Of a DNA stretch of 64,000 nt, positions 7,753-64,000 are shown piece after piece. A program made the translations under genes and the position numbers. Each line of letters opens with the position of its first letter. The stretch's first letter is position 1. The notes under the pieces were generated by a model that saw only the letters and a list, made by a program, of their open reading frames with translations, was not told the origin of the DNA and did no database searches. The stretch lies in assembly GCA_963729855.1 (NCBI GenBank), contig CAVSPT010000002.1, positions 10,012 through 74,011 of the forward strand, read 5' to 3'. The DNA is from Candidatus Aminicenantes bacterium. Lineage in GTDB: Bacteria; Acidobacteriota; Aminicenantia; Aminicenantales; UBA4085.

Positions 7753-9408
<1,656 letters not shown>

Positions 9409-12439: not shown

Positions 12440-12525
12440 TCGGAAGAGCGGGATCGGAGCGCCGGAGCGCGTTTTCCAGGCTGGGGAAAACGAGCGTGTT
12501 TCGCCCCGAATCTTCGAGCCCTCTA
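12440..12525. repeat. Partial copy of the 5644-5880 palindromic element
   Basis: ggggaaaacgagcgtgtttcgccccgaatcttcgagcc resembles gggggaaaatcagcgtgttttgacccgtgatgcccgaatcgcc at 5805-5847; 3' end abuts/overlaps gyrA stop. Confidence 0.35.
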
Positions 12526-41761: not shown

Positions 41762-41769
41762 GAGGGATC

Positions 41770-44372: not shown

Positions 44373-44400
44373 CCCCATTTCCTATTCCCCATTTCTTCAA

Positions 44401-44433
44401 GGCCGCCCCTTTCGGGGGGCGGCCCCTTTTTTT
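44401..44433 (+). terminator. Rho-independent terminator
   Basis: GC stem ggccgcccc/ggggcggcc with tttc loop followed by 7 T (44427-44433) right after the hutI stop. Confidence 0.7.
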
Positions 44434-44852: not shown

Positions 44853-44858
44853 GGCCGG

Positions 44859-46211: not shown

Positions 46212-46315
46212 GCCCGCTAGATTAGCGGAATTCAGCCCTCATTTCCACCAAAAGAAAAATGCCGTCATGACCGCCGGAAGTCTATTTTTTCCTTTATATC
46301 AATGCCCTGCGGGAC

Positions 46316-47302: not shown

Positions 47303-47568
47303 GGGTTTATTATAATATGCGCCCTGGCCTGAACAAAGCGCGGGCGCGTTGTCCACATTGTCGGCTTATCCGGCTTTCTGCCGACGATCCATCGATCGAT
47401 CTCCGGGAGCGTCCGTGAACCGGCCGCCCGGAGCCCAAAATTCCCAACGTTATCGGGCGAAAACGCTTTTTAAGCCGCAAAGTCCGACCCTGCGGCCGAA
47501 CAAATCGACCTCAATCCCCTTCAGCCGTCTCTAAGGCTTCTCAATCCAACGATTGATCCGAGGGCTCC

Positions 47569-48117
47569 CTACCTCCCGACATATTGCGTGTGGACGTAGA
47601 CTCCGGTATGTACGTTATAGAGCAAATACCAACCGATGTGGTCCAGGTCCTCGTAAATGACGAAGTCATCTCCGCAGTCCCAGCACCAATCTTCGAAGAG
47701 GGGCCAATCCCAGGCGGCCAATTCAAAACAGAAGCCGTCCGGAAGCCAGAACCTATGAAGGTTGGCGTCAATCCGGGTGATTTGGTACCGGAACGTCGGC
47801 CCGAAATTCGCGAAGCGGCCGTTCGAAAACGGATGATCCAGGTGGAACCGGGCATCATTCGGTTGTTCGTGGCCGAACCACTGGTCGTGGTTGACATGCG
47901 GCGTGTCGTTCACATGGCCGGTGCGCAGGTGCTCCACCTGGCGCGGCACGCGAGTATCGGTCCTCGCCGGCGGCGCCGGCGGAATATGTCCCTGGTTCGC
48001 GCGCGGTCGATTATGGGACTGTTGCGCTCCCCGCTGCGCCGCGCTGGGCCGGGCCAGCAGCATAGCCAACGCTAGAACAAGGACGGATCCGAACAAGAGA
48101 GTCACTCTGTTTTTCAT
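47569..48117 (-). CDS. Secreted His/Trp-rich hypothetical protein
   Basis: 182 aa; signal peptide MKNRVTLLFGSVLVLALAMLLARPSAAQ; no recognisable family. Confidence 0.4.
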   Translation of the reverse strand: MKNRVTLLFGSVLVLALAMLLARPSAAQRGAQQSHNRPRANQGHIPPAPPARTDTRVPRQVEHLRTGHVNDTPHVNHDQWFGHEQPNDARFHLDHPFSNGRFANFGPTFRYQITRIDANLHRFWLPDGFCFELAAWDWPLFEDWCWDCGDDFVIYEDLDHIGWYLLYNVHTGVYVHTQYVGR

Positions 48118-48395
48118 GAATCGCTCCTTTCATGGCGCAAGGCCGAAAGCTTCAGTGATCGTGAGTGTTTAAGGCTGCCATTCGTATGAATTGAATATAC
48201 AAATACGGGAATAATCTGTCAAGAAAACCGGCCGCAAAACATTCCTTCAGAACCTGGGAATCGACCGCGCAAAGCCGGTCGCGGCCCGATTCCTCCCCTG
48301 ATTTTCAAGCCGGATGATCTTGGCTTCCTGGACTTCACGAAACCAACGATCTTCAAGGCCGCGGGCGGCTTCTCATAGAAGTCGGCCAGGGGGGC

Positions 48396-48898
48396 TCAAT
48401 AATAGCGGTCCATGGCCCGGTACTGGATGGCCTCGCTCAGATGGGCCGGACCAATCCTCTCCTCCCCCGCCAGGTCCGCGATCGTCCGGGCCACCTTCAA
48501 CGCGCGGTCGTAAGCCCGGGCGCTGAAACCGAGTTTGGTCACCGCCGCCTCCAACAACTTCTCCTCTTCGGCGCCGATGGGGCAGAACTTCTTCACCTCG
48601 CCCGGGCCCATCTGGGCGTTGGCGAAGATCCCCCGTCCTTTATAGCGTTCGACCTGGAGGGCCCGGGCCTCGCTCACCCGCTCGCGGACCGCCTCCGAAC
48701 CCTCTCCCTCCTGCTTGGAGACGATCTCCCGGAATTTGACCGCGGGGACCTCGGCCTGGATGTCGATTCGGTCAAGAAGGGGGCCCGAGATTTTGGAATA
48801 ATAGCGTCCTCTCTGGTGGTCGGTGCACTCGACGTCCCGTCCGCCCAGGCCTCTCAGGACGTCGGCGCAGGGTTGCGTTGCCGTACTGTCATTTAATC
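48396..48898 (-). pseudogene. comM: comM/yifB (Mg-chelatase-like AAA+ protein) 3' fragment, truncated by insertion
   Basis: Continuous minus-strand frame ...ATQPCADVLRGLGGRDVECTDHQRGRYYSKISGPLLDRIDIQAEVPAVKFREIVSKQ...KVARTIADLAGEERIGPAHLSEAIQYRAMDRYY* = YifB C-terminal domain; homology stops at ~48898, the N-terminal ~330 codons are absent. Confidence 0.75.
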
Positions 48899-49318
48899 TT
48901 GAAGGGAAATAAGCCGGTTCACAGGGAGAAATACCCTGATATTTGCAAAACGTGGGGCGACTGGATTCGAGCTCGGAGAATCGATTTGAAGCTCACAAAA
49001 GCCCAACTTTCCCTCAACCTTAATGTTTCGGACATTACGATATATCTTTGGGAACATAATCGAGTCCAGCCGTCTGTAACCCAAATTCCGAAGATTATTG
49101 AGTTCTTGGGACGAGATCCCTTCGAAGCAAATTCCGAAAATTTGGGGGACAAACTCAGATCATACCGGCGGCTGAACGGACTTTCTCAAAAGAAATTTGC
49201 TAAGCAACTGGGAGTCGATTTTACGACTCTGGCCGGATGGGAGAGAGGGGAACACTGGCCGTCGAAAAAGATGCTTGATAAAATCAAATCGGTCTTTTTA
49301 TCCTCCATGCCGAGCTGA
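48878..49318 (+). CDS. Tandem-HTH XRE-family transcriptional regulator (copy 1)
   Basis: 146 aa; two helix-turn-helix units (LKLTKAQLSLNLNVSDITIYLWEHNRVQPS and NGLSQKKFAKQLGVDFTTLAGWERGEHWPS); putative TTG start lies antisense inside the comM fragment. Confidence 0.6.
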   Translation: MPYCHLILKGNKPVHREKYPDICKTWGDWIRARRIDLKLTKAQLSLNLNVSDITIYLWEHNRVQPSVTQIPKIIEFLGRDPFEANSENLGDKLRSYRRLNGLSQKKFAKQLGVDFTTLAGWERGEHWPSKKMLDKIKSVFLSSMPS

Positions 49319-49428
49319 CCTGACCCCCTTCCCCAAATGCCCCTCTCGTCTTTTCCCCGAGTGTCTTGAAATAAAATCGATAAGCCGCCGCCGCCGCTCT
49401 TCCTCTCTACGGCTTGCCCGGGAGTTGA
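49171..49428. repeat. Direct repeat A (~260 bp, 3' end of the HTH gene plus ~110 bp downstream)
   Basis: >90% identical to 51289-51553. Confidence 0.7.
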
Positions 49429-49670
49429 TTGTCGTCTGAAGCGCGAGAGGATGGCTTTTGCTAAAGGTAATAGCATGGACTAGTTCGAGATCGTCGTTCT
49501 TGAAGCATTTGGAGAAGGCGTTTTTCTGCGTTCATTGCAAAAATGGCTTTAGGGCTCACAATGGAATAAAATATTAAAGACAAGCAGGTCTTCAGTATAC
49601 CTTCCAAAGGTTTCTCGACTGTCCAAACAATGGGCGCGGCTTCATTTCCTTAAAAGCATGACTTAAGACG

Positions 49671-51149
49671 ATGAAAATACTCTTGATTTATCCAAAGTAT
49701 CCAGACACATTCTGGAGTTTTAAGCATGCTTTGAAATTCATCTCAAAAAAAGCATCTTTCCCCCCTTTGGGCTTATTAACCGTTGCTTCCATGCTCCCCA
49801 AAGAATGGGAGAGAAAGCTTATTGACATGAACGTCTCGGTTTTAACCGAGGAAGATCTCGAATGGGCGGACTATGTCTTTATCAGCGCTATGGTCATTCA
49901 GAAAACCTCAGCCAGGGAAGTGATTAGAAGATGCAAGAAATTGGGAATCAAAATTGTTGCCGGCGGCCCTCTTTTTACCACCGGATATGAAGAATTTGAG
50001 GGCATCGATCATCTTGTTCTTAATGAAGCTGAGAATACGCTTCCGTCTTTTCTGGATGATTTAAAGAATGGATGCGCCCAATATATGTATACCTCTAAAG
50101 AGTGGCCAGATTTAGAAGGGACTCCCTGTCCACAATGGGACCTCATCAACATGAAAAAATACGCTTCCATGTGCATCCAATATTCCAGAGGCTGTCCCTT
50201 TAATTGTGAATTTTGTGACATTATTGTTCTCAATGGTCATAAACCACGGACAAAGAGTAAAGACCAGATTTTGGGAGAACTGGAAGTTTTATACGAACAA
50301 GGCTGGAGAGGCGGGGTGTTCTTTGTCGATGACAATTTTATAGGTAATACGAAAAGACTGAAAACGGAAATTCTTCCCGCTCTCATCGATTGGATGAAAG
50401 AGAAAAAATATCCTTTTTATTTTTTCACAGAAGCATCTATCAATCTATCTGATGATAAGAAGCTAATGCAATTAATGGTCAAGGCCGGATTTGAAAGGGT
50501 TTTTATCGGAATTGAAACGCCGAATGAAGATAGCCTCACAGAATGCAATAAATACCTGAATAAGAATCGTAACCTGATAGCTTGCGTAAAAAATATTCAA
50601 AACACCGGCCTAGAAGTTCAGGGGGGATTCATCGTAGGTTTTGATAATGATCCTCTTTCTATCTTTGAAAGACAGATAAGTTTTATTCAAAAGAGCGGAA
50701 TAGTCACGGCTATGGTTGGGTTGTTGAATGCACCGCCGGGGACAAAGCTTTTTCAGCGTCTAAAAAAAGAAGAAAGATTATTGGATGATCCCTCTGGTGA
50801 TAACACCGACTTTTCACTCAACTTCATCCCCAAAATGAATGCTGACGCACTCATGACTGGGTATAAGAAAATCCTCAATACGATTTATTCCCCTAGAGAC
50901 TATTATAAACGCGTGATAACATTTTTTAAGGAATATAAACCAATACGGATAAGAAAAAAGATCCATTTTAAATTTTGTTATATCAACGCATTCTTCAAAT
51001 CTATCTGGTTTTTGGGGATAAAAGGAAAAGAAAGATTGTACTATTGGAAACTTTTTTCCTGGACATTAGTAAGGCATCCCCGCTTTTTTCACTTAGCAAT
51101 CACACTCGCAATTTATGGTTTTCATTTTCAAAAAACTATGGCAGCTTAA
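49671..51149 (+). CDS. B12-binding radical SAM protein with C-terminal DUF4070-like tail
   Basis: 492 aa; N-terminal cobalamin-binding Rossmann-like region, CPFNCEFCD radical-SAM cluster motif, long C-terminal extension; low-GC codon usage. Confidence 0.85.
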   Translation: MKILLIYPKYPDTFWSFKHALKFISKKASFPPLGLLTVASMLPKEWERKLIDMNVSVLTEEDLEWADYVFISAMVIQKTSAREVIRRCKKLGIKIVAGGPLFTTGYEEFEGIDHLVLNEAENTLPSFLDDLKNGCAQYMYTSKEWPDLEGTPCPQWDLINMKKYASMCIQYSRGCPFNCEFCDIIVLNGHKPRTKSKDQILGELEVLYEQGWRGGVFFVDDNFIGNTKRLKTEILPALIDWMKEKKYPFYFFTEASINLSDDKKLMQLMVKAGFERVFIGIETPNEDSLTECNKYLNKNRNLIACVKNIQNTGLEVQGGFIVGFDNDPLSIFERQISFIQKSGIVTAMVGLLNAPPGTKLFQRLKKEERLLDDPSGDNTDFSLNFIPKMNADALMTGYKKILNTIYSPRDYYKRVITFFKEYKPIRIRKKIHFKFCYINAFFKSIWFLGIKGKERLYYWKLFSWTLVRHPRFFHLAITLAIYGFHFQKTMAA

Positions 51150-51288
51150 TTATTTTTGAATGAGTCGCTAATTCGCTCCGCTGTCTTTTCTTATTGCTGG
51201 GAAGCAGGAGTCCAAGAGCTTTGGGTTCTGTTCGCCTCATACTCATTTAAATTTCCTTTTTCCTTCAATGCCAAACGTTAATAAACCA

Positions 51289-51436
51289 GCTGAAGGGGCT
51301 TTCTCAAAAGAAATTCGCTGAGCAACTGGGAGTCGATTTTACGACTCTGGCCGGATGGGAGAGAGGGGAATACTGGCCGACGAAAAAGATGCTTGATAAA
51401 ATCAAATCGGTCTTTTTATCCTCCATGCCGAACTGA
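51289..51436 (+). pseudogene. 3' fragment (last ~48 codons) of a third XRE-HTH gene copy
   Basis: Begins abruptly at 51289; mosaic similarity (5' end like copy 2 at 60630, remainder like copy 1 at 49171); no start codon. Confidence 0.5.
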
Positions 51437-51553
51437 CCTGCCCCCCTTCCCCAAATATCCTTCTCGTCTTTTCCCCGAGTGTCTTGAAATAAAATCGATA
51501 AGCCGCCGGCGCCGCTCTTCCTCTCTACGACTTGCCCGGGATGGTGATCGTCT
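51289..51553. repeat. Direct repeat B (partner of 49171-49428)
   Basis: Direct comparison of the two sequences. Confidence 0.7.
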
Positions 51554-51656
51554 CTAAAACAAGAAAATGGCTGTGGCGATGACCGGATAGCCGAAGATCT
51601 CGTTCCACTGCGAAAAGCTACGGTTGGAAGTCAGGATCAAGGGCGCTCTAGATCAG

Positions 51657-52127
51657 CTATATTTTACGATGGATGTATTTTGTGTAATCCTTGATGACTG
51701 GGTGATATTCTTTCTTCATAAGAGGCGAAGAAATCATGAAATCCGCGGTCGAGCGATTGCAGGCGATGGGAATATTATAGACCACCGCGATTCGAAGGAG
51801 CGCTTTAACATCTACATCATGAGGCTGCGGTTCCATGGGGTCCCAAAAGAAAATGACGAAATCGATTCGACCCTCGGCGATCATTCCCCCGAGCTGCTGA
51901 TCCCCTCCGAGCGGACCCGACTTCAATTTGTTGATTTCAAAAGGCTCTTTTTTAATATGATCGCGCTCGAATTTTTTACTGATAATTTCCTCTACCAAGC
52001 GGCCCGTGGTCCCCGTGCAGACCAATTTATGTCGAACCAAGGTTCGATAGTTGAACTCGACCCATTCTCCGAGATCGGGTTTTCGATTATCGTGCGCCAC
52101 AAGAGCGATCGTCTTTATCCTTTCCAT
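51657..52127 (-). CDS. mgsA: Methylglyoxal synthase
   Basis: 156 aa; IALVAHD, CTGTTG, SGPLGGDQQLGGMIAEGRIDFVIFFWDP, PHDVDVKALLR nearly identical motifs to E. coli MgsA. Confidence 0.9.
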   Translation of the reverse strand: MERIKTIALVAHDNRKPDLGEWVEFNYRTLVRHKLVCTGTTGRLVEEIISKKFERDHIKKEPFEINKLKSGPLGGDQQLGGMIAEGRIDFVIFFWDPMEPQPHDVDVKALLRIAVVYNIPIACNRSTADFMISSPLMKKEYHPVIKDYTKYIHRKI

Positions 52128-52660
52128 AGAAAAAGCCTCCAGGTGGACTCAAAAATCTATTGCCGCCGATCTAGTAAGCAGAATTATATCGGGAAAAGGC
52201 ATGATCCCCAAATTCAATTGAAGAAAAATCCTAATCTATCAATGAGGCGCCACCCCCGCTACCCAGCGTCGCTATCCGGGCCCGGCCCCTCGGGCCCCGC
52301 CTCTTCCAAATCGACTTTAATCGATTTACAGAAACTCTTGAAATCCGCAAAGACGTTCTTTTGAATTGCGCCTTGGTTAACGGTTGTTTTTCCTAACTGA
52401 TCGAGATGATCTTCAACCCTCAATGGGTGGTTTGAATAAAAAATCACGAAGGCCGATGAAGGAATATTTTGTTTTGTTCGTTTTTATATTCTCGATGATA
52501 ATTTGGAGTAGTTCTTTTGATGAAGTCCCATATTCAGTTTCCGCATTCCTCCAAATCGTAAAGACAAGCGGCCCTCTGCTTGGAGTCTCATTATTCGTTA
52601 CCATCTTCCCCTTCCTTAAAAATCACTATCTCAACCCGGTCGCACTCCGGGCGGAATTCT

Positions 52661-53113
52661 CTAGGTCGACGAGATCAGCGTTTCTAACGTTTTGATATGG
52701 TTCTGGTCGCCGTTGGCGAGGGCCTGGAAAAGCCGCTGGAGATGAGCGTCTGAGACGACGAGGGAGGCTCCGATGTGGATTCTTTCGAACCTTTTCTCCA
52801 GACTGAGGAGCCATTTCAGGCCGGGGAGAAGGCCAAAATTTTTTTGGAGCCGATCGTGTAATTCCCGGCATTCTTGGAGGCCGAGATTCAATTCTTCTTC
52901 GTCGAAGTTCACGCCTAGGAATATACACGGGGCCTCTTTCAAAAAATTCTTGCCCATCTTGAGGGTTGAGGCGTGGTTGAGTTCTTCGTGGGAGATTTTG
53001 ATAAGCTTCTTTGAAATTGCGTCGTCATGCGTGAGCGTAGCGATCTTCCGGTAGAGCTCGGAGATTTGAGTCTCGATCTCGGTGCCGAGGGTTAGAAACT
53101 TTTCGAATTCCAC
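52661..53113 (-). CDS. Ferritin-like (diiron-carboxylate four-helix-bundle) protein, putative
   Basis: 150 aa, all-helical, paired E...ExxH motifs (EELNH, ERIH) as in ferritin-like superfamily; GTG start with GAGAAAGGGGG RBS. Confidence 0.4.
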   Translation of the reverse strand: MEFEKFLTLGTEIETQISELYRKIATLTHDDAISKKLIKISHEELNHASTLKMGKNFLKEAPCIFLGVNFDEEELNLGLQECRELHDRLQKNFGLLPGLKWLLSLEKRFERIHIGASLVVSDAHLQRLFQALANGDQNHIKTLETLISST

Positions 53114-53126
53114 GCGGCCCCCTTTC

Positions 53127-53240
53127 TCAGGAAGTTGCTTCTGCTTCTTCCTCGATCGTGATGTTAATGATCATACAGTACTCCGGGCGTTCGTCGTGGT
53201 CAATCATGGTGCCCATCTTGTAGTACCGGCAGTAGACCAT
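53127..53240 (-). CDS. 37-aa micro-ORF (MVYCRYYKMGTMIDHDERPEYCMIINITIEEEAEATS)
   Basis: ATG preceded by GGAGGGGGG; stops 14 nt before the ferritin-like gene start; two Cys, Tyr-rich N-half, acidic tail; below ORF-track cutoff. Confidence 0.2.
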   Translation of the reverse strand: MVYCRYYKMGTMIDHDERPEYCMIINITIEEEAEATS

Positions 53241-53311
53241 CCCCCCTCCGGATCTTTCCCGGCGGGCAGCTCGGGCAGGACGTCGGACGGAAGGCTGTTA
53301 TTAGCATAATC

Positions 53312-53494
53312 TCAAATAATTCTAATCTTGCAATACCATCCAAATAGCGCTTCCTTAATATTGATCGAACCTCGATTCTGGTCTTCCTCCATTATTTTTG
53401 CATTCGGGGCATCGGAAAAGGCTTCTTGATGAAGTTTCATGGAGGCAATAAAGCTGCGGATTGCTATTGCCTCTTCCCTTTCCCGCCTCTCCAA
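53312..53494 (-). CDS. 60-aa helical hypothetical protein
   Basis: ORF-track only; same strand and upstream of micro-ORF; competing 67-aa ORF on + strand (53439-53642). Confidence 0.2.
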   Translation of the reverse strand: MERREREEAIAIRSFIASMKLHQEAFSDAPNAKIMEEDQNRGSINIKEALFGWYCKIRII

Positions 53495-53942
53495 CTTGCA
53501 CTTGCTTTTTGTTGCTAAAACGGATGCCCTAACGATTGCTGGCTATATGAAGGCCTTGCTCGTCCTTAAAGAGATGCAGAAATCAGGGGAGATTGAAATT
53601 GTGGCGTTCCAAGGATTGAAGTCATGGATTCGTTCTTTGTGATAAAATATTTCTAGCTCTCGTTAGTCAGCTGGGGAGAGTCCTCCCATCAATCCCCCTT
53701 TTTGCCAACAGCCGGCAATATGTGTGCTCATAATTTGTTCGATTTCCCGAAAATTCACACAGGAACCTTATGATCGGAGCCCGTGGAACTTTGCCCTTCG
53801 AGTTTATTAGATCCTGAACGGAAAGATTAAAGGCAAACTGATAGCAGAAGAACTTATTTTTTATAAAACCGATCAATAATGTAATATGCGACTTTTTCCT
53901 TGTCAGGATGCGGGGCTTTCAAATCTTCCATCAATTTCGAGA

Positions 53943-53972
53943 TTGACTTGATGCAGAATCTCCTTTTATAAT
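53943..53972 (+). promoter_or_regulatory. Near-consensus sigma70 promoter (TTGACT-18-TATAAT) for nfeD-stomatin operon
   Basis: TTGACT 53943-48, TATAAT 53967-72, only 9 nt before the TTG start at 53982 (leaderless or very short leader). Confidence 0.5.
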
Positions 53973-53981
53973 GGAATCAAC

Positions 53982-55259
53982 TTGAGGGAAAAATATTTCG
54001 CTTTAATTTTTCTGGTTCTTTTCCCTGTTTTTTCTCCCGCCGCCATCCTGAAAATCACCGTTGACGCGGCCATCCATCCGGTGACATCCGAGTATATCCG
54101 CGATTCGATCGACCGCGCCGATAAAGAGAACGCCGGCCTTCTTATCATGACGCTCAACACGCCCGGCGGCCTGGATTCGTCGATGCGGGAGATCATCGAG
54201 AAGATTCTTTCGGCCAAAACGCCCATCGCCGCTTTCGTCAGCCCGAGCGGAGGCCGCTCCGCATCCGCCGGATTTTTCATCGGCATCGCCTGCGACCTTT
54301 TCATTATGGCGCCCGGAACCAACACCGGAGCCGCGCATCCCGTCGGCGTTTCGATTACGGGACAGTCCATGGACAAAACCATGGAGGATAAAGTCACGCA
54401 CGACGCGGCATCTTACATCAAGACGTTGGCTGAAAAACGCGGCCGCAACGTCCAGATGGCCGAGGACGCCGTCAGAAAAAGCCTGTCCTATACGGAAAAG
54501 GAGGCGCTCCAGGGAGGTCTCATCGATTTCATCGCGAAGAATGAGCAGGAAATCATCGACGCCTTCGATCAAAAGACCATCGGACGTTTCCATGGCGACA
54601 CCGTCGTCCTCCGTCTCAAACAAGAGCCGGTGATCAGCGTGGACATGTCCGCCCGGCAGAAATTTCTTCTGACGATTTCCAACCCCAACCTTGCCTACAT
54701 CCTGCTCATGATCGGCCTGCTCGGGTTGTATTTTGAATTCGCCAATCCCGGCGCCGTTCTCCCCGGGATCCTGGGCGGCATCTCGCTTCTCCTGGCCATT
54801 TTTTCGTTCCAAATCCTGCCTATCAATTACGTCGGCCTGATTCTCATTCTTTTGGCTATGGCCCTGTTTATTCTGGAGGTCAAGGTGCACAGCTTCGGCG
54901 CCTTTTCAATCGGTGGCATCATCGCCCTGGTCATCGGCTCGATGATGCTCATCAAGGCCCCGATTCCCGAGCTCCGGCCGAGCCTCCGGATCATCATCCC
55001 CGTAGCGCTTGGCATCTCCCTGATCCTTATCTTCCTCGTCTATCTCGTCATCCGGGCCCAGGCCCGCCGGTCGCTCACCGGAAAGGAAGGAATGGTCGGG
55101 GAAATCGGGACCGCCCGGACCGACCTCACCTCCGAGGGGAAGGTTTTCGTCCACGGCGAACTCTGGGAGGCGGAGGCGGTCGAGCCCATTAGTGCGGGCG
55201 AAAAGGTGCGGATCGTCGAGGTCCTTAAGACCCTAAAAATCAAGGTTAAAAAAGCTTGA
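53982..55259 (+). CDS. NfeD-family membrane-bound ClpP-class serine protease
   Basis: 425 aa; signal peptide, ClpP-like domain with GGLDSS...GAAHPVG, C-terminal TM bundle and OB-fold. Confidence 0.8.
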
Positions 55260-55305
55260 CCTATACGATAATGGGAGGCCTTACGGTCTCGGCAAGGAGA
55301 AAAAA

Positions 55306-56067
55306 ATGGAAAGTTACCCGGTCATCGTCGTCGCCCTCATCGTCCTTTATATCCTGGGTTCGATCAAGATCCTGAGAGAATACGAGCGCGGAGTCATTTT
55401 TCGGCTCGGCCGCGTCCTGCCTAAGCCCAAAGGGCCCGGCATCATCTTGGTCTTCTTCCCGATCGACCGCATGGTGAGAATCAGCCTGCGACTCATCACG
55501 ATGGCCATCCCCCCCCAGGATGTCATCACAAAGGACAATGTCACGGTGAAGGTCAACGCCGTTCTCTACTTCAGGGTCATCGACCCGCTCAAATCCGTGA
55601 TTGACGTGCAGGATTATCTCAACGCCACCTCCCAGTTGGCACAGACGACCCTGCGCAGCGTCCTCGGCCAGGTTCCGCTCGACGACCTCCTCTCGGAGCG
55701 GGATAAATTGAACACCCGCATCCAGGCCATCATCGAGCAGCACACCGACCCCTGGGGCATCAAAGTCCAGCTCGTGGAGATGAAACAGGTGGACCTTCCG
55801 GAGAACATGGTCCGGGCCATCGCCAAACAAGCCGAGGCTGAACGGGAACGCCGGGCCAAGGTCATTCACGCCGAAGGCGAATTCCAGGCCGCCGATAAAC
55901 TCCTCCAGGCCGCCAACATCATTTCTACAAATCCGCAGGCTCTCCAGCTCCGATTCCTAGGCACCTTGACGGAGATTGCCGCGGAAAAAAATTCGACGAT
56001 CATCTTTCCTCTCCCCATGGAGCTCTTGAAAGCCTTCACCTATGAAAAAAAGCAGGAGGACAAATAG
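55306..56067 (+). CDS. SPFH/band-7 (stomatin/slipin-like) protein
   Basis: 253 aa; N-terminal TM, SPFH core, classic nfeD-stomatin operon partner; AAGGAG RBS. Confidence 0.85.
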
Positions 56068-56713
56068 GGCCCAGGACAAAAGAGATGCCAGATCGCGAAT
56101 TTAAATTCTCGAGCACCTAGTTCGTCGTCGTCTTCATTGTCATCCTGGTCCAGAGTGTTTTCATCTTCTTGATCGAATTTTTGGTCGTCAAAAAAACAGG
56201 TTGATCTTTCGGCAGGTGTTTGTCGTCAGGCGGTTTCGGACTCGCGAGCTGACTTCTTAAGCTACAGGTTCCTGGTCTCATAATATTTTAACTGACGCCG
56301 TTTGGCAAGGCTTCAAGAATCGCCATCCGGTTCAACTCCCTCCTCATCTTCATGGTCTCCTGGCGGACATTTTCCCACTTTTTCAAGATCACGCGGTCCC
56401 GTCCGTAATACTTGTCTGGACGATAAATTAAGCTGCCGCTTTTGCGCGAGCCCAGAGGTACGGCTATGGGAAGCCGTCCTAACGATCCGCTTTGTAAAGC
56501 GGTCTGTAGGCGGCCCAGCTAGAGAAATGAAATGCCAAGTCTATCGCTGCTAGGATTGCGGCAGGAATTTCGATGAGGTTGAAGCCGAAGGAAAAAAATA
56601 ATCCTAAAGTCGGGCCCACGTTCTCCTAATCGTTTTTTCTTCCCTTAGCCAAGAAAAAAGCCGACGTTACGCATATGATTATCCCCAAATATATCTGAGC
56701 AAAAAGATATTTA

Positions 56714-56865
56714 GCTCCTAGAATTGCCCCTAAGATTAGGGCAAGTCCTAGGAGCCTGTCGGAAAACCCCCTATTTCCGGGGTTTTCCCTTAAATGGCAT
56801 GAAGAAAATAAACGATTTACGCAACGAATAACCCGAAATTATGAGGTAATCCGACAGGCTCCTAG
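56714..56865. repeat. Nested palindromes: imperfect ~42-bp palindrome (56714-56755) and perfect 16-bp inverted repeats (56748-56763 / 56850-56865)
   Basis: gctcctagaattgcccctaagattagggcaagtcctaggagc; ctaggagcctgtcgga ... tccgacaggctcctag enclosing hairpin aaaaccccc..ggggtttt. Confidence 0.6.
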
Positions 56866-57209
56866 AAAGCAGAAAAAAACGATTACATATCTTTGCGCGT
56901 TTTTCATTATTCCCCCCTCTTTAGAATTTCCCGGTTTAGCTTTAGGTAATCTTCGGCCCCGTGGCTATTCGGCGCATAGACGAAAATATCTTGTCCGTAG
57001 CTCGGGGCTTCCGCTAATGCGGCCAGCGTGACCTTGCGTATGCATTCCCAAATCATTGTTGGAGCACCCCGAGGCCGAGCGACCATAGCAGTATAACAAT
57101 AATCGATTGGAACACAAGAATTTAAGGCCTTTGAAGACCCTTGCCGTCACCGGCCGGGCCCGCTATACACCTTCAACCCGCCCAAACTGTCTAACCGTTA
57201 GGGGACACC

Positions 57210-58832
57210 TCACAATCCGTTGGTGAAGCTTCTGAGCGTCTTCGACCGGCTTGGATGCTTAAGCTGGCGCAGAGCCTTGGCCTCGATCTGACGAATGCGC
57301 TCTCGGGTGAGCTTGAACTGCTGGCCAACTTCCTCCAGGGTATGATCGTTCCCGCCGCCCAGGCCGAAGCGCATCTTGAGGATCTTCGCCTCGCGCTCGG
57401 TCAAGCTTCTTAGAGCCTCCTCGATTTTTTCGCGCAGATTGATATGGATAACGGTGTCAGGAGGCGAGAGCATGACCTTGTCTTCGATGAAGTCGCCGAG
57501 GTGGCTGTCCCCCTCCTCGCCGATGGGCGTTTCGATGGAGAGAGGCTGCTTAACGGTCTTGATGATTTTGCGAACCTTGCTCGCCGGCAGGTCCATTTTC
57601 TTGGCAATTTCCTCGCTGGTCGGCTCGCGGCCGATCTCCTGAACGAGCTGGCGGCTGACCCGGTTGAGCTTGTTAATGATATCGATCATATGGACCGGGA
57701 TGCGGATCGTGCGGGCCTGATCGGCGATGGCCCGGGTGATGGCCTGGCGGATCCACCATGTGGCGTAAGTCCCGAACTTAAATCCACGGCGGTATTCGAA
57801 CTTGTCGACAGCCTTCATGAGGCCCATGTTGCCCTCCTGGATGAGGTCCAGGAACTGCAAGCCGCGGCTGGAATATTTCTTGGCGATGGAGACAACCAGC
57901 CGGAGGTTGGCGGCGACGAGTTCTTTTTTGCCCTGGTCGCTGATCTTCTTCCCGGTAGTGATGGAGCGGATGATCTTTCGTAGATTGGGCAAATCAAGCC
58001 CGATGTCCGTTTGTATGGTCCGGATTTGCTTCTGCAGTTCCTGGAGCTTTTCGGACAGGTCTTCACCGTCCTTCTTTTTCCGGGTCTTGGCCAGGAGCAG
58101 CTCGATTTCCTCTTTTTTCTCGTCCAGTTGGTTGACGACGTGGAGCCAGCGGCGGAGGGTTTCAATGATCCTTTCCGTCTGGATTGTTCGAAATTTGAGA
58201 TGCCGAATGGATCTCGATATCTCGACGATGACGCGGCTTCGGGCGAGAGCCTTCTTCCGGTTTTTAGGGATCTTGTCCAACTTCCGGCTCAGGTTGTGGA
58301 TCTTTCGGACCTTGGCCAGGATTTGGTTTTTCTTTTCCTCGAGTTTGCCCTCGGCGATGGCGTCTTCGGAAATGTCAAACATCTCCTGGATGATCATCGG
58401 ATTGGCTTCAATTCGTTCTTCAAGGGACAGGACTTCGTTGAGGACCAGACGGGTCTTGCTGAGGGCCTTGATGATGGTTTTTTCGCCACGCTCGATTTCG
58501 CGGGCGATGGAGATCTCGCCTTCCCGGGTCAGCAGGCTGATATTGCCCATCTCCTGGAAGTAGAGCTTGACCGGGTCGGTCGTCCGCTCCAGCTCCTGAG
58601 TTGTCAGCAGCTCGTTCTTACGCTGGCGGGGTGCAACTTTGCGCTGTTTCTGGTCGAGGATTTTGATCCCGTAGCCATCGATCGAAGAGAGGAAATCGTC
58701 GAAATTCCCCTCCGTTTCGCGCGCGTCCTGGAAGGCCTTGTCGATATCATCAAAAAGAAGATAGCCCTGCTTGCGGCCCTTGGAGATGAGCTCCGATATC
58801 CCGTTTTTGGGAAGTTTAGTGTCGGCCGGCAC
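57210..58832 (-). CDS. rpoD: Second full-length primary-type sigma70 (RpoD paralog/xenolog)
   Basis: 540 aa colinear with the 7753-9408 RpoD (~85% aa identity; regions 2.4 and 4.2 essentially identical) but nucleotide sequence diverged and lower GC. Confidence 0.9.
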
Positions 58833-58893
58833 ATGGCACTCCTCACCGCTACGTTTCGCCCTTCAAAGAAAATACACCTTGACCCGAATTTGT

Positions 58894-58904
58894 TTAGTAT
58901 ACCA
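58894..58904 (-). promoter_or_regulatory. Putative extended -10 promoter (TGgTATACT) of island rpoD
   Basis: Minus-strand tggtatact ~60 nt upstream of ATG with GAGGAG RBS. Confidence 0.35.
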
Positions 58905-58937
58905 CCGGAGAAGTGAAAGTTATAGGCTCCAATACCT

Positions 58938-60000
58938 CTAGAGCTGGAGTCCATCGCCTATTGGCTTGGGCGATGGGGACCTCTCCGCTACAGAGGTCAG
59001 CCTCGGATGATCGATGATCCGATCCACGATGGCATACCCCGTGATGAAAGCGACGACCTTCCTCCTCCTCCTGCACTGGGGGCATCCCATCGGGATGATC
59101 CAGTAACGGTCGCGATCGCTGGGGGCGTTTCCTGACCTGGAATGACCGGTATCTGAAACCAAAATCCTGGGGAGACGCGCGGCCGCTTCAGACTGATCCG
59201 AGTCGGACATGAGTTCCGCGATAAGCTCCTTGACCGTCACGATCTTATTGATCCGGTAGGCGTTATGGCCGCAGAAGATCAGACCGTTATCGACATCCCC
59301 CATAAAGGAATTGACGAGGGCCAGGGCGATGCAATATCTGGCCTCGGCGACCTTACAGGCAGTCAGACAGCGGTAATCACACTTGATCTGGAGCTTGTCC
59401 ACGACCTCGAGCTTTTTCAGGAACTTGTCCCGGATAGCCCGCCCGGGCATTCCGACGGGACTCTTGATAATGCTGTTCCAGGGAGAATCCCAAGTGTCCC
59501 CCCGCCAAAGGACCTTCCAAAATCAGGGCGTCGGCCGTCCGGGCGAAGCGTTTTTCCCACGATCTCAGGATCAATTCGGCGACCCGTCCAGAGCTAACAA
59601 TGGGAACGAGGTTGACCGATGGGTCCTCGACAAGGCCGGGCAGTTTGGCTGGCAGACCGGCCCCATACACGATCATTTTGATGCCTTCCCGAACCGCGGT
59701 CAGGATCAGGTCGTCCACGTTGCTGAGCACGCCCATAAAATTGACGGCCAGGTTGCCATCCGTCGAGCTTTTGGCTTTGCGGATCTCCGATTCCAGGGCT
59801 TCCCGGGATGCTTTTTCGTATTCGTTCTTGGAGGCTTCGGGGTCGCCCAGGCCGATGCTGGATATGGTGCCAACGGCCCCTTCCCGGGCGACGGCCGCGG
59901 CCAGGGAAGAGAGCGAGACCCGCACGCCCATCCCGCCCTGGACGATGGGGATGTCGGCGGTGATGCTGCCGATTTTAAGCTTGGAGATTTTCATCTCCGC
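58938..60000 (-). pseudogene. Nitronate monooxygenase / FabK-like (NMO family) gene with internal frameshift
   Basis: N-terminal IPIVQGGMGVRVS...EGPLAGGHLG in ORF 59377-60285, C-terminal NMO residues continue in a different frame (ORF 58938-59450); frames overlap 59377-59450. Confidence 0.65.
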
Positions 60001-60300
60001 CTCCAGGAGTTTCTCCCCATCCGGACCGATGGGGCAGAACGCCTTCACTTCGCACGGCCCCATCTGGGCATTGGCGTAGATCCCGCGGCCTTGGAACCGC
60101 TCAATCTGTCGCCGCCGGGCCGCCTCGACTCTCGACCGGATCGAGGCCGAGCCCTCCCCTTCCTGTTTAGAGACGATCTCCCGGAACGGCACGCTGGGGA
60201 CTTGCCTGGATATCGATGCGGTCGAGCAAAGGGCCCGAGATTTTCGAGTAATAGCGGGCTCTCTGATGATCCGTGCACTCGTCATCGCGTCCGCCCGCCC
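59995..60300 (-). pseudogene. comM: Second internal comM/yifB fragment (~300 bp), frameshifted, fused upstream of the NMO gene
   Basis: Nucleotide similarity to 48556-48900; encodes ..CTDHQRARYYSKISGPLLDRIDIQ.. then 2-nt deletion relative to copy 1. Confidence 0.65.
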
Positions 60301-60330
60301 CCGCCCGCATCACGTTGGCGCAGGGTTGCG

Positions 60331-60780
60331 TTGCCCTTTTGCCATTTAACCTTAAAGGGAAAAAGACCGGTCCACAGAGAGAAATACCCTGATATTTGTC
60401 GGACGTGGGGCGACTGGATTCGGGCTCGCAGGATCGATTTGAAGCTCACCAAAGCCCAACTTTCCCTCAAGCTTAATGTTTCGGACATTACGATATATCT
60501 CTGGGAGAAGAATAAAGTCCAGCCGTCCTTGGCCCAGATTCCAAAGATTATCGAATTCCTGGGCCGCGATCCGTTTGAAGCTGAAGCCGGAAGCCTGGCT
60601 GAAAAACTCAAAAACTATCGCCGGGTGCAGGGGCTTTCTCAAAAGAAATTCGCTGAGCAACTGAAGGTCGATTTTACAACCTTGGCCGGGTGGGAGAGAG
60701 GGATACATGAACCGTCAAAAAGACTTCTAAACAAGCTAATCGCCGCAATAAGCTTTTCTAAACGTAAGGAAGCTATTTGA
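60331..60780 (+). CDS. Tandem-HTH XRE-family transcriptional regulator (copy 2)
   Basis: 149 aa, ~80% identical to 48878-49318 copy; same TTG-start position relative to the comM fragment. Confidence 0.6.
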   Translation: MPFCHLTLKGKRPVHREKYPDICRTWGDWIRARRIDLKLTKAQLSLKLNVSDITIYLWEKNKVQPSLAQIPKIIEFLGRDPFEAEAGSLAEKLKNYRRVQGLSQKKFAEQLKVDFTTLAGWERGIHEPSKRLLNKLIAAISFSKRKEAI

Positions 60781-60885
60781 ACCCATATTTCCCAAATAGA
60801 AATCAAAACTTGTTATAATATTAGCTGAAAAGGCTGATGAATAAAGGCTGATGGCGATATTAAAGCAGAAAAACGGAGAGACCTG

Positions 60886-61212
60886 ATGGGTGAGAGCAAA
60901 AAAGAGGTCTTGCGGGTCCAGTTTGACCCCAGTGTGAAGCTGGAATTCCAGGGCGCAAAAATAACCAGTGATGGCGGTCTGCTGCTTTTCAGAGAGATGG
61001 ATGAAGTGATGGGATTGACGGTTTTGGCCGAGAAAATTCTTCAGGATCCGCGCACGGGCCAGAATACCTAGCACACGATGACGGCATTGCTTCGCCAAGC
61101 GGTATATGGACGGTTGGCCGGATACGAGGATACCAATGACGCCGAGCGGCTGCGAGTCGACCCGGCCCTGCAATGGGAGAATTCAATCTGTGATGGAGGA
61201 ATCAGGTGGCTT
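60886..61212 (+). pseudogene. IS1380-family transposase N-terminal remnant
   Basis: KITSDGGLLLFREMDEVMGLT ... (TAG at 61069) ... ALLRQAVYGRLAGYEDTNDAERLRVDPALQ = conserved N-terminal motifs of IS1380 transposases; only ~108 codons, in-frame stop, remainder deleted. Confidence 0.7.
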
Positions 61213-61259
61213 TGATCGGTCATATGGGAAATCCCGGTTAAAATATGGAGGATTAAACA

Positions 61260-62765
61260 ATGGCAGTTGAACCAGCATCAAGCATGAGCACGCCAGATTT
61301 CGGCGCCCTCGTCGCCCGTCACCGCAACTACTTCTTGTCGGGCGCGACCCGCTCTGCGGAATGGCGAAAAACCCAGTTGATCGCATTGCGGTCGATGATG
61401 AAGGACCACGCCGAGGAGTTCTACGCCGCGTTGTGGACGGACCTCCGCCGCAACCGGACCGACGCGGATTGGACTGATGTGAAGTACATGACCAGCGAGA
61501 TCGACCACGTGCTTGCTCACCTTCGGCGATGGATGAAGCCGCTAGCGGTGAGCACGCCTCTTGTTCTGACACCATCCCACGCGCAGGTGCAGTTCGATCC
61601 TCTCGGGGTCGGGCTGATTATCGGCACGTGGAACTATCCAGTGATGATGGTACTGTCACCGTTAGTCTCGGCGATTTCCGCGGGGAACGCAGCTGTTATC
61701 AAGCCATCGGAAGTATCTCTAGCCACCGCCGAAGTGATCGCACGGCTCGTCCCCGAGTATCTGGACCGCAACGCGTTTTCAGTAGTCCTCGGCGCGATAC
61801 CCGAGACTACGGCACTACTGGAGCAGCAATGGGACCACATCTTTTTTACAGGTGGCTCGACCGTCGCCAAGGTGGTCATGACCGCGGCAGCGAAACATTT
61901 GACCCCAGTCGTGCTCGAACTGGGCGGGAAGAATCCCACCATCGTGCACTCCTCAGCCAACCTGCGCGTCGCGGCGCACCGCATCGCTTACGGGCGCTGG
62001 TTTAATTCCGGCCAGACGTGCACGGCGCCGGACTATGTCCTCGTGTTCAAGGACGTTGCCAAGGCATTTCTAGGACACCTGAAAGAAACGTTGCTTCAGT
62101 TCTACGGAGAGGATCCGCAGAAAAGCCCGGATTATGGCCGGATCGCCAGTTCCCATCACTTTGACCGTCTGACGAAGCTGCTCAGCAGCGGGACGATCTT
62201 TCATGGTGGGCAGCACGACGGGACGGACCGTTTTATCGCGCCAACGGTGCTGGTCAACGTGTCGCCGGACTCGCCCGCAATGCAGGAAGAGATTTTCGGC
62301 CCCATCCTACCGGTACTGGAGGTCGCCGACGTTCGGGAAGTGATCGACTTCGTCAACGCGCGGCCGAGCCCTCTCGGTCTGTACTTGTTCTCTGACGATC
62401 GGTCCGTAACCGAGCAGATCCTGAACTCAACGACATCGGGGGATGCCTGCGTCAACGACTGCACCCTTCAGCCGATCCTCCATGATTTGCCATTCGGCGG
62501 CGTCGGCAACTCCGGAATGGGCAAATATCACGGCGAGTGGGGATTCCGTACGTACACAAACGCGCGCGGTGTTCTGTACCACAGCACGCGACTCGACTCA
62601 GCCGTCCGTTATCCTCCTTACGACCGTAACCAGAGGCTGCGGGAATTTGTGTTAAAGAGTGCTTCGATGGCTCCAAAATTACGAGCTTCTCTTGGCTCGT
62701 ACCGGATTCCACTCGATTCGGAGATCATCGAAGGCTTAATCGAAGACAACCGACTTCACCAATGA
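61260..62765 (+). CDS. NAD(P)-dependent aldehyde dehydrogenase (ALDH3-like)
   Basis: 501 aa; ELGGKNP, catalytic Cys in GQTCTAPDY, GGAGG RBS. Confidence 0.85.
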   Translation: MAVEPASSMSTPDFGALVARHRNYFLSGATRSAEWRKTQLIALRSMMKDHAEEFYAALWTDLRRNRTDADWTDVKYMTSEIDHVLAHLRRWMKPLAVSTPLVLTPSHAQVQFDPLGVGLIIGTWNYPVMMVLSPLVSAISAGNAAVIKPSEVSLATAEVIARLVPEYLDRNAFSVVLGAIPETTALLEQQWDHIFFTGGSTVAKVVMTAAAKHLTPVVLELGGKNPTIVHSSANLRVAAHRIAYGRWFNSGQTCTAPDYVLVFKDVAKAFLGHLKETLLQFYGEDPQKSPDYGRIASSHHFDRLTKLLSSGTIFHGGQHDGTDRFIAPTVLVNVSPDSPAMQEEIFGPILPVLEVADVREVIDFVNARPSPLGLYLFSDDRSVTEQILNSTTSGDACVNDCTLQPILHDLPFGGVGNSGMGKYHGEWGFRTYTNARGVLYHSTRLDSAVRYPPYDRNQRLREFVLKSASMAPKLRASLGSYRIPLDSEIIEGLIEDNRLHQ

Positions 62766-62909
62766 CGTCATGGACAAAGCGGACTGAATGGAGATCGAAA
62801 GGATATGCTTATTTCCGGCTTTACTTCTATACGCAGCAAGATGAGATATATGATTTAATAGGTCAATTGCTTTTTCGAAGTGATCCGTCGATGACGAGGA
62901 TGAATTCAC

Positions 62910-64000
62910 ATGAACTCGATAAAACTTCTCCTGGTTTCTGTCTTCGGGCCCTTCGGGGTGAGGGACGATTACGCTGAGGGAAATGGAATGCAGATGGAAC
63001 TCTTCAACAACCAGATCACGAGGCAGCAGGGAGTCCACTCGCCCCGGCAGTCCTACTGGAGTTTCCCGCTGTACCTGCTCGCGGAGAATGTCTCGGTGCC
63101 TGCAACTGTTCTCGATTTTCCCGCCTGGGAAGAATTCACGAGGGAACTGGAAAAGGGTTACACTCACGTGGGCATCACTTTCATCGTCCCCAACGTCCTG
63201 AAGGCTCGAAGGATGGCCGAGCACATTAGATCGAAGCACCCTGAGATGAAGATAATACTGGGCGGCTTCGGCACCATGGTCCCTGCCCTGGAGACCATCG
63301 TTCCCCACGACGGTGTATGCGACGGCGAGGGTGTGGAGTGGCTGAGGCGGTACTTCGGGGAAGACCCATCGGCACCCATCGTGCATCCTGCCATTTTCGG
63401 CCCAGCCTACGAGTACATCTATGGGGCAAGGATTCCCACGAAGGGGTCGATCCTGCTCACCGGGGTGGGATGCAACAATGCCTGCGAGTTTTGCGCCACC
63501 TCCTTCAAGTTCGGCAAGAAGTATGTGCCCTTCATGTCGACCGGGGCCCAGGTGTTCGATGCCTGTCTGAAGTCCGAAAAGGAACTGGGTTCAAGGGGAT
63601 TTGCCATTATCGATGAGAATTTCCTCAAGAAGCCCCAACGGGCCAGGGAACTTCTTGCCCAGTTGGAGGCGCAGGAGAAGGCCTACGTCTTCGACATATT
63701 CTCCTCTGCCGAGGTGATCACCGATGTAGGCATCGATTTCCTCGTGCGACTCGGCATACACGTGATCTGGATCGGTGTCGAGTCGAGGGCGAACACCCAT
63801 GCGAAGCTTAAGGACATAGACATCGGCAACCTGATAGCTCAGCTCCAGGAAAATGGCATCTCGGTGATAACATCCGGCATCCTTTTCCTTGACCACCACG
63901 ACCAAGAGACCATCAGGGAAGATATCGAGTGGATCATTGGTCTCGGTTCCGACATGACCCAGTTCATGAACTACACACCCTACCCATGCACCGGCTTGTA
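62910..64000 (+). CDS. B12-binding radical SAM protein (5' partial, runs off window)
   Basis: Open frame from ATG 62910 to window end without stop: cobalamin-binding domain (HVGITFIVPNV...KIILGGFG), radical-SAM CNNACEFCATS motif; absent from ORF track because no stop codon in window. Confidence 0.7.
   Translation, partial: MNSIKLLLVSVFGPFGVRDDYAEGNGMQMELFNNQITRQQGVHSPRQSYWSFPLYLLAENVSVPATVLDFPAWEEFTRELEKGYTHVGITFIVPNVLKARRMAEHIRSKHPEMKIILGGFGTMVPALETIVPHDGVCDGEGVEWLRRYFGEDPSAPIVHPAIFGPAYEYIYGARIPTKGSILLTGVGCNNACEFCATSFKFGKKYVPFMSTGAQVFDACLKSEKELGSRGFAIIDENFLKKPQRARELLAQLEAQEKAYVFDIFSSAEVITDVGIDFLVRLGIHVIWIGVESRANTHAKLKDIDIGNLIAQLQENGISVITSGILFLDHHDQETIREDIEWIIGLGSDMTQFMNYTPYPCTGL

Follow-up and report, generated by a model that had tools for sequence, protein, structure and literature searches.

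A tandem array of mosaic accessory units at a fixed junction in comM of Candidatus Aminicenantes

What interrupts comM in this Candidatus Aminicenantes genome, and is the gene lost by it? The window, meaning the whole 64,000-nucleotide stretch of DNA analyzed here, consists of host DNA up to about 48.87 kb, where it breaks off inside comM and passes into DNA of lower GC content. The original prediction described a mosaic island inserted in comM, and the reading of this low-GC DNA as horizontally acquired, mosaic accessory DNA within comM is supported. What it missed is modularity: junctions between a comM 3' end and a gene for a protein with tandem helix-turn-helix (HTH) domains are repeated, which makes the island a tandem array of at least three units. 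We consider it likely that the array consists of site-specific integrative elements that enter comM at its Pro-Cys codons, replace its 3' end and accumulate by tandem accretion. The element family probably repairs comM rather than destroying it.

The junction between host and element DNA

Two pieces of comM lie in the window, both on the minus strand. Fragment A (48396..48872) encodes ComM residues ~346-506 and the stop codon, 161 codons with a Mg_chelatase_C match at E = 5e-34. It has no internal stops and stays in frame from ~48880 to the stop codon at 48396-48398. The original prediction had placed the C-terminal ~167 codons of comM at 48396-48898; the fragment is real and in frame, but it spans 161 codons and its host-derived portion ends at ~48869-48872. 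With a GC content of 0.652, against 0.639 for the host, fragment A is best read as the displaced original 3' end of the host gene, on the attL (left attachment site) side. Fragment C (59991..60325; GC 0.648) covers residues ~346-457, is frameshifted, has lost its last ~50 codons and is 75-81% identical to fragment A. It is read as a replacement 3' end that was brought by the second unit of the array and displaced later, on integration of the third. Both pieces break at the Pro-Cys codons of a conserved 'AAMNPC' stretch, at about residue 345 of ~506.

Each comM piece is followed by a tandem-HTH gene on the plus strand. HTH-A (48878..49318), the first gene of unit 1, encodes 146 aa with two XRE-type HTH_3 domains (Pfam, E = 5e-21), and HTH-C (60331..60780), the first gene of unit 3, encodes a protein 75% identical to HTH-A. 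The module of comM 3' end and tandem-HTH gene is thereby present twice in the window, at 48396-49318 and 59991-60780, with a DNA identity of 73-83%.

The junction was defined by an alignment of 84 unique sequences and by comparison with the intact sites of full-length comM genes. In full-length comM the site reads ...ATCCTCGCAGGG before the crossover and ATTCATGGCC after it, and in the junctions ...CTCGCAGGG is followed by TTGCGTTGCC. The crossover region of the window (48870..48880) runs from host ...GTCGGCGCA through GGG TTGCG to TTG, the start codon of the HTH gene, which lies 5-10 nt past the crossover. Which three bases stand before the conserved TTG(C/T)G (GGG, CCG, CCT and others) depends on the HTH subtype, and these bases are therefore assigned to the element. 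Outside this core the element arm and the comM arm have weak similarity, ~6/10 nt beside the core, which is not interpretable. The HTH start codon is TTG in nearly all of the 84 sequences. It is preceded by a GGG that belongs, on the other strand, to the Pro codon of comM and might act as a ribosome-binding site.

Mean GC falls from 0.636 (1-48870) to 0.512 (48871-64000), and in 300-nt windows the drop is abrupt at ~48.87 kb. The original prediction had noted a markedly lower GC past 48.9 kb and named windowed GC and tetranucleotide deviation as the check; both deviate in the island. The composition-normalized tetranucleotide signature correlates with the host mean at r = 0.87-0.95 in 12 of 12 host 4-kb chunks, and at r = 0.72-0.83 in the four island chunks of that size. 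The island itself is uneven, with GC at 0.39 in the first radical SAM segment, 0.45-0.47 in both HTH genes and 0.55-0.59 in the second rpoD gene (rpoD2), the nitronate monooxygenase (NMO) pseudogene, the aldehyde dehydrogenase (ALDH) gene and the second radical SAM gene (rSAM2). It reaches 0.65 in the two comM pieces embedded in island DNA.

So abrupt a break in a metagenome assembly might come from a chimeric contig, in which a 64%-GC genome was joined to unrelated lower-GC DNA through the conserved comM sequence. Repeats at this locus do break independent assemblies: Logan contigs retrieved with the permease gene or the first radical SAM gene (rSAM1) are short and end inside 255-bp repeats. 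The break is no assembly chimera, however, since the independent Logan contig ERR11594402 runs across it and matches window 41254-49232 at 100% identity. The same junction also recurs with a syntenic left flank in many metagenome-assembled genomes (MAGs) and metagenome contigs, and we regard an artifact of this kind as extremely improbable.

Relatives were collected by scans with an HTH alignment over one-genome-per-species contigs (12 loci) and JGI metagenomes (80 loci), and are referred to here by L numbers. The named loci nearly all come from Candidatus Aminicenantes or Acidobacteriota MAGs. Among 96 HTH copies, four lie too near a contig end to be judged; a comM 3' fragment abuts the HTH gene at the same nucleotide in 76 of the 92 evaluable copies. 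Integration at this one position spans hosts whose comM 3' ends differ by up to ~35%. The 16 other evaluable copies have no adjoining comM fragment, and their left flanks are heterogeneous. A second target site was considered for these copies and rejected, since the heterogeneous flanks look like deletions. Three of them (L013_13901, L038_3106 and L064_2066) have in common 140-215 nt of other left sequence (…GCCGCCATCCCGATGTCTC…).

Two loci with an Aminicenantes-type junction carry titles from elsewhere, L004 (CAZLAM010000134.1, titled Eubacteriales), which also has the permease flank, and L010 (JAUYDB010000045.1, titled Omnitrophota). These are probably mis-binned contigs and not cross-phylum transfers. 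A scan of viral contigs with the HTH alignment gave no relatives, so the elements are no recognized proviruses.

The left flank, with FtsZ, amidohydrolase and amino-acid permease genes, is syntenic with the window in a dozen loci, and GC drops at the HTH gene in each. Of 12 genomes with a permease, 11 have a leftmost comM fragment with the GC of that host gene (range 0.56-0.66), and the HTH genes lie at 0.43-0.49. Across these 12 genomes the divergence of the fragment follows that of the permease (rho = 0.59, p = 2e-7) and not that of the HTH gene (rho = 0.18), and HTH divergence is likewise unrelated to that of the permease (rho = 0.10). L066 and L044 share an identity of 0.95-1.00 as soon as the HTH gene begins, against 0.53-0.80 to the left of the junction. 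The junction is the boundary between the host-derived fragment and element DNA.

The tandem-HTH gene is the sole gene common to all units of the element family. Its protein family comprises 792 clusters at 90% identity, all named merely as XRE-family regulators, and the nearest solved structures are weak matches to the DNA-binding domain of the P22 C2 repressor. That the protein serves as a regulator or directionality factor is a guess. Codons 1-60 show stronger conservation at synonymous sites than codons 61-83, a pattern consistent with a cis-acting arm overlapping the gene. Residues 1-27 (e.g. 48878-48958), before the first HTH domain, are highly conserved as well (MPxCHL...KPVHREKYPD), with Cys4 and His5 invariant and His15 nearly so.

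Replacement 3' ends and tandem growth

Locus L009 has the order comM fragment (8485-9003), HTH gene, zinc-ribbon ORF, 387-aa MGS-like protein and full-length comM (11473-12999). This comM encodes 506 aa and is reached after ~2 kb of cargo past the HTH gene; the fragment recurs as the final 476 nt of this gene, 2,988 nt away. L093 likewise has a full-length comM at the array end, ~5.5 kb past the HTH gene, and in L096 and L082 the contig ends fall inside such a comM copy. In L009 and L093, comM is rebuilt from an element-borne 3' end.

The claim that comM survives only as its C-terminal codons is therefore probably a misreading, given the full-length gene at the far array end of these two relatives. 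The original prediction also took an intact comM elsewhere as a refutation of the insertion; it is none, as the replacement model itself predicts an intact copy of the gene to the right of the array. Extrapolated from L009 and L093, the source genome of the window would have a restored comM past 64 kb. An island in comM need not mean that ComM function is lost.

The comM-3' copies within one array have identities of 70-97% and differ as much as copies taken from separate genomes, so each unit brought its own copy and the copies did not arise by duplication in situ. The 35 unique displaced fragments of full length are all free of stop codons, with a dN/dS of ~0.15. These patterns fit the ends of comM genes that worked until recently, and not the remains of a single old insertion. 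Roughly twelve further comM fragments are truncated or frameshifted, fragment C of the window included. In L033, L082, L093 and L096 the repeated module runs 50-70 nt past the comM stop and includes a hairpin-like sequence (…GAAAATTCGATACCTGAAATTCGG…), probably the terminator of comM, which would have come in with the replacement 3' end.

Tandem arrays are present in L013, L023, L030, L062, L090, L021/L024 and a 44.6-kb composite of L103-L105 (see below). Arrays also contain debris. The HTH-B remnant of the window (51286..51541, plus strand) keeps residues ~98-146 and a tail, forms the truncated left end of unit 2 and has counterparts in the partial HTH remnants of other arrays. It is 95% identical to 49168..49423 (plus strand), the HTH-A 3' half with its downstream tail, and these two copies of a 255-bp direct repeat bracket the 39%-GC radical SAM gene.

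Unit 3 of the window (60331-62820) is 99.0% identical to L062 over 2,491 nt, with a core of 2,370 nt at 99.5%. The host permease of L062 is only ~75% identical to that of the window, and the comM piece left of the unit is 50-80% identical. A description of this match as 95% identity including the comM piece was rejected on the sliding identity, by which the comM piece was not transferred along with the rest. Next to the unit in L062 come a comM-3' copy of its own and another HTH gene; homology with the window ends at 62820. Unit 3 has moved recently between hosts.

This transfer bears on vertical inheritance, the reading in which the low-GC genes are ancestral to Aminicenantes and happen to lie beside a decayed comM duplicate. 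The left flank and the HTH junction are indeed conserved across the group, as such descent would have it. The cargo, however, is nearly all different between loci (169 clusters from 230 ORFs), the GC and tetranucleotide signature of the island deviate from the host, and two hosts with only ~75% identity in their flanking genes share unit 3 at 99%. Vertical inheritance is very unlikely on these grounds.

Recombination machinery and the proposed cycle

Pfam searches on all main ORFs of the window from 48.9 to 64 kb confirm the absence of an integrase or transposase module that the original prediction had noted; only stray insertion sequence (IS) fragments are present. The complete small units of relatives, bounded by two comM-3' copies, consist of the HTH gene, 1-5 cargo genes and a comM-3' copy, with no recombinase-like gene. 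A Pfam scan of 130 island ORF clusters gave no recurrent integrase, recombinase or transposase family. The sole match of phmmer searches with serine and tyrosine recombinase seeds over ~90 loci is a serine enzyme in L003. The tyrosine recombinase seeds, the L101 sequence and an approximate E. coli XerD query, had no matches in these loci, within the limited sensitivity of single-sequence searches.

The original prediction compared the island with the AbaR/Tn6022 islands of Acinetobacter, which insert by Tn7-like transposition, carry Tni genes and terminal inverted repeats, make a 5-bp duplication and inactivate comM. An element of this type whose transposition genes were lost or lie past the window would agree with the known use of comM as a target by such elements, with the accessory cargo and with the machinery-free window. 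None of its transposition features is found here. The window has no TniA/B/C-like or other transposase module, and none recurs in the ~90 related loci; terminal inverted repeats and a short target duplication are absent, and the bounds are instead ~480-bp direct repeats of comM coding sequence. Moreover, comM is restored in relatives. The island is no member of the AbaR/Tn6022 family, and a decayed Tn7-family transposon has almost no probability as its origin.

The enzyme of L003 (contig JAPKZG010000013.1) is a 589-aa large serine recombinase with Resolvase, Recombinase and zinc-ribbon domains. Upstream of its gene lie those for a TraG/TrwB/HerA-like ATPase, a membrane protein of 209 aa, a RuvC-like protein and an HTH_36 protein. 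Both L003 and contig Ga0643846_0000009 carry a large element that opens with the same HTH gene at the same comM junction, continues with these genes in this order and includes the serine recombinase. Three overlapping loci of one 205-kb contig, L103-L105, give a continuous 44.6-kb view of such an arrangement: decayed units, then a comM 3' end with an HTH gene and three cargo genes, then another comM 3' end with an HTH gene and a large backbone. The backbone encodes a TraG-like ATPase, the 209-aa protein, an ABC transporter, RuvC-like and HTH_36 proteins, the serine recombinase, a PDDEXK protein and a second TrwB-like ATPase, and is collinear with L003, L012, L032 and L097. Large members of the family exceed 29 kb, and none of their backbone genes is in the window.

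In the composite the recombinase lies ~17 kb from the junction. Close homologs of the L003 enzyme lie in contexts without comM, as is explained by this depth of the enzyme inside the element. The large element is likely the autonomous member of the family, and the small units non-autonomous derivatives or satellites of it. By its co-occurrence with the junction, we infer that the serine recombinase is the candidate enzyme acting at the comM site. The recombinase family is unusually conserved, at 60-84% identity among the 120 clusters listed (matches P0121-P0240; contexts L097-L102). Its source names include Aminicenantes, Thermodesulfobacteriota, Planctomycetes and a DPANN archaeon, and its members often adjoin defense-type cargo (PycTM, SMODS, HEPN, AbiTii).

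In the proposed cycle, each unit would comprise the 146-aa tandem-HTH (XRE-type) gene, variable cargo and its own copy of the last ~160 comM codons. Integration would take place between the comM-3'/HTH junction of the element (attP) and chromosomal comM, with the serine recombinase of the large members supplied in trans. The resident 3' end would be pushed to the left, beside the HTH gene, and the element-borne 3' end would be joined to the comM 5' part, leaving comM intact and the target site regenerated. Since the left arm of the element is a comM 3' end, integration would regenerate a target-like site and so allow serial accretion. Serial integration would stack the units with the newest nearest the comM 5' part, and the array would be eroded and shuffled as its repeated modules, the HTH genes and comM 3' ends, undergo deletion and homologous recombination with one another. 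That homologous exchange contributes is shown by the first ~100 nt of HTH-C, where identity to L062 is lower, by the HTH remnants and by the 255-bp repeats.

Several observations weigh against this cycle. The right end of the array is outside the window, so that comM restoration in this genome is extrapolated from two relatives. The serine recombinase, a candidate by co-occurrence, is found with a comM junction in two contigs only, and its family is widespread in other phyla. Identity between the window and L062 reaches ~100% only ~100 nt inside the HTH gene, an offset that fits homologous exchange within this gene and not a clean crossover at the junction. The repeated module passes the comM stop by 50-70 nt in some arrays, and its far boundary is not uniform. 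Element-borne comM-3' copies have a host-like GC of 0.55-0.68 inside low-GC elements, for which the model gives no simple explanation. The window does not follow the expected gradient of decay, with fragment A intact and fragment C broken.

Some of these points would suit a hotspot that needs no recombinase. One ancient insertion would have made the comM-3'/HTH junction, and later diversity would come from homologous recombination, e.g. by natural transformation, with comM 3' ends and HTH genes as portable anchors. A recombinase gene is absent from small units and from most arrays, the 255-bp repeats and partial HTH remnants are the work of homologous or illegitimate recombination inside arrays, and the near-100% identity of the ALDH unit to L062 begins within the HTH gene, of which codons 1-~60 are unusually conserved in DNA and may serve as an anchor. 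A ~480-bp direct repeat is also the expected product of Campbell-type integration through a cloned 3' gene segment. The displaced fragments, however, track their hosts and are free of stops with low dN/dS, unlike a single ancient pseudogene. Identity between L066 and L044 rises from 65% to at least 95% exactly at the junction, and the flanking comM is too diverged for efficient homologous exchange. The HTH gene offers no anchor for the first insertion into an empty comM, and large family members do have a serine recombinase. Integration by a site-specific enzyme is the reading we favor, and a history without any recombinase is unlikely; homologous exchange inside arrays is part of both.

Comparison with known systems

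The closest architecture is that of the ssrA islands of Dehalococcoides. These islands are stacked in tandem, some with a CcrB-like serine recombinase module and others without a recombinase and read as cis-mobilizable; they are bounded by a 20-bp direct repeat of the target 3' end, with the newest island beside the intact gene (PMC3146451). Tandem stacking at a single-copy conserved gene, direct repeats of the target 3' end, units that lack a recombinase, low GC and variable cargo are shared with the comM arrays. The arrays differ in phylum and in target, a protein gene cut in its middle and not a tmRNA gene, and in place of the 20-bp repeat they have ~480 bp of comM coding sequence, by which the gene is rebuilt. 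The gene at the end of each unit is a tandem-HTH gene at the crossover and not a recombinase module, with the recombinase ~17 kb inside the large element. A literature search for comM-targeting integrases was swamped by unrelated uses of 'comm', and the Dehalococcoides analog alone proved useful.

Replacement of a target 3' end is familiar from phage 21 and e14 in icd, where the element carries an alternative 3' end, so that a hybrid but intact gene results and the old 3' fragment is displaced to the other end. The same outcome is seen in L009 and L093, and fragment C of the window is consistent with it. Phage 21 and e14 are, however, single prophages with a tyrosine integrase beside the att site, whereas the comM family consists mostly of tiny non-autonomous units in arrays, with no tyrosine recombinase found in ~90 loci by single-sequence phmmer searches of limited sensitivity.

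SCCmec elements, which use Ccr recombinases at rlmH (orfX) and are also discussed in PMC3146451, combine a large serine recombinase, a site in a conserved gene toward its 3' end, composite and tandem elements, and pseudo-elements without a recombinase. The comM family resembles them in its candidate large serine recombinase, in its target in the 3' part of a housekeeping gene, in its composite and tandem forms and in its units without a recombinase. SCC elements, by contrast, integrate at the very 3' terminus of their gene, with a short repeat, and have neither a large coding replacement nor a tandem-HTH end gene.

Integrons share with the arrays a fixed chromosomal platform and an ordered array of small cargo units that lack a recombinase, the newest nearest the platform. 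Here, by contrast, the unit bounds are comM-3'/HTH junctions, and each unit has a regulator-like gene and a piece of the target; units can hold several genes, in both orientations. No IntI-type integrase or attI lies near the arrays, no integrase lies beside the restored comM of L009, and attC-like folds were not specifically searched for. A more speculative reading, which we consider unlikely, makes comM the platform of an integron-like gene capture run by the serine recombinase. The right junction (attR) would resemble the chromosomal site (attB) and attL would resemble attP, which would permit unlimited serial capture of recombinase-less cassettes and possibly excision without a directionality factor, and the HTH gene would act as a cis or trans 'address' or switch. 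If true, this would be a new organizational class of cassette array in an uncultured phylum.

The mid-gene target in comM, the ~480-bp segment that rebuilds it, the invariant tandem-HTH end gene and the mostly tiny units without a recombinase set this family apart from these systems; it is large and undescribed. For the Aminicenantes, which are abundant in sediments and uncultured, it represents a major, previously undescribed route by which genes are exchanged, with cargo that includes a second sigma-70 factor, radical SAM enzymes, an ALDH, toxin-antitoxin pairs and transporters. The junction is a simple sequence signature by which arrays can be found and their cargo cataloged. If the serine recombinase is confirmed, a natural attB in a conserved gene together with non-autonomous cassettes would provide a system for studying half-sites shared by attP and attB.

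Units, cargo and flanks in the window

The window is best read as a tandem array of at least three degraded non-autonomous units followed by an rSAM2 module. Pfam confirms the cargo that the original prediction had named (a second rpoD, mgsA, two B12-radical-SAM enzymes, nfeD-stomatin and an ALDH), and the NMO, IS1380 transposase, comM and HTH fragments that it had called pseudogenes are such. Unit 1 would consist of HTH-A and rSAM1 (49671..51149, plus strand), a B12-binding radical SAM gene with a DUF4070 domain in a segment of GC 0.39. A deletion would have taken its comM-3' copy along with the 5' half of HTH-B.

Unit 2 would extend from the HTH-B remnant to fragment C. Its cargo begins with an MGS-domain gene (51657-52127) and a hypothetical gene for 150 aa (52661-53113) on the minus strand, followed on the plus strand by NfeD (53982-55259) and SPFH/stomatin (55306-56067) genes. 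The MGS-domain gene lies just downstream of an HTH gene or remnant, on the opposite strand, both here and in L009 (9795-10958). The two MGS genes are only 33% identical, and this may be coincidence or a recurrent type of cargo.

A non-coding stretch with repeat debris (56068..57209) separates the SPFH gene from rpoD2. The frames tested in this stretch have no Pfam match, nor do three stop-free peptides from 56.1-57.2 kb and 58.9-59.2 kb. Positions 56287-56418 (132 nt) are 89% identical to an intergenic stretch (575-706) of an unrelated ENA contig, L016. A 40-nt inverted repeat at 56748-56865, with near-perfect 16-nt ends (CTAGGAGCCTGTCGGA...TCCGACAGGCTCCTAG), may be a small repeat resembling a miniature inverted-repeat transposable element (MITE).

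The rpoD2 gene (57210..58832, minus strand) is intact and encodes a sigma-70 factor with regions 1.1 to 4 by Pfam. It is 79% identical to the host rpoD (7786-9402) and apparently comes from a related, lower-GC Aminicenantes lineage. The NMO pseudogene (58938..59990, minus strand) survives as two out-of-frame pieces, NMO positions 260-330 and 4-177 on different ORFs, and abuts fragment C.

Unit 3 would comprise HTH-C, an IS1380 fragment and the ALDH gene (60331-62820), as a recent acquisition. The IS1380-type fragment (60841..61212, plus strand) is a pseudogene for a transposase N-terminus that matches positions 3-88 of 435 of DDE_Tnp_1_4 (E = 2e-24). The ALDH gene (61260..62765, plus strand) has an Aldedh match at E = 1e-84.

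The rSAM2 module (62855..64000, plus strand) is a separate mosaic piece that stands where the comM-3' copy of unit 3 is expected. It holds a B12-type radical SAM gene that starts at ~62925 and runs past the window end; its Pfam scores are under the curated cut-offs, and close homologs have both domains. From 62855 on only, the window is 99% identical to ENA contig L015 (8064-9209), which has an unrelated context. Homologs of rSAM2 at 99% and 96% identity sit in unrelated contexts, and the mosaic breakpoint is at 62820-62855. The L015 copy of the gene is flanked by an M20 peptidase gene and an ISL3 transposase gene, and the gene seems to be mobile by itself.

The host left flank (44859..48395, minus strand) encodes an amino-acid permease (44859-46211), an Amidohydro_2 protein (46316-47356) and a 182-aa protein (47569-48117), the last with no Pfam match. 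The permease is syntenic in 12 Aminicenantes loci at a protein identity of 62-75%, and its spacing to comM among relatives ranges from 115 bp to 6.4 kb. The stretch 46212-48395, with the Amidohydro_2 gene and the gene for the 182-aa protein, has a GC of 0.565, under the host average, and is variable too, independently of the comM junction. The sole tRNA of the window, tRNA-Met (9486-9557), lies directly after the host rpoD.

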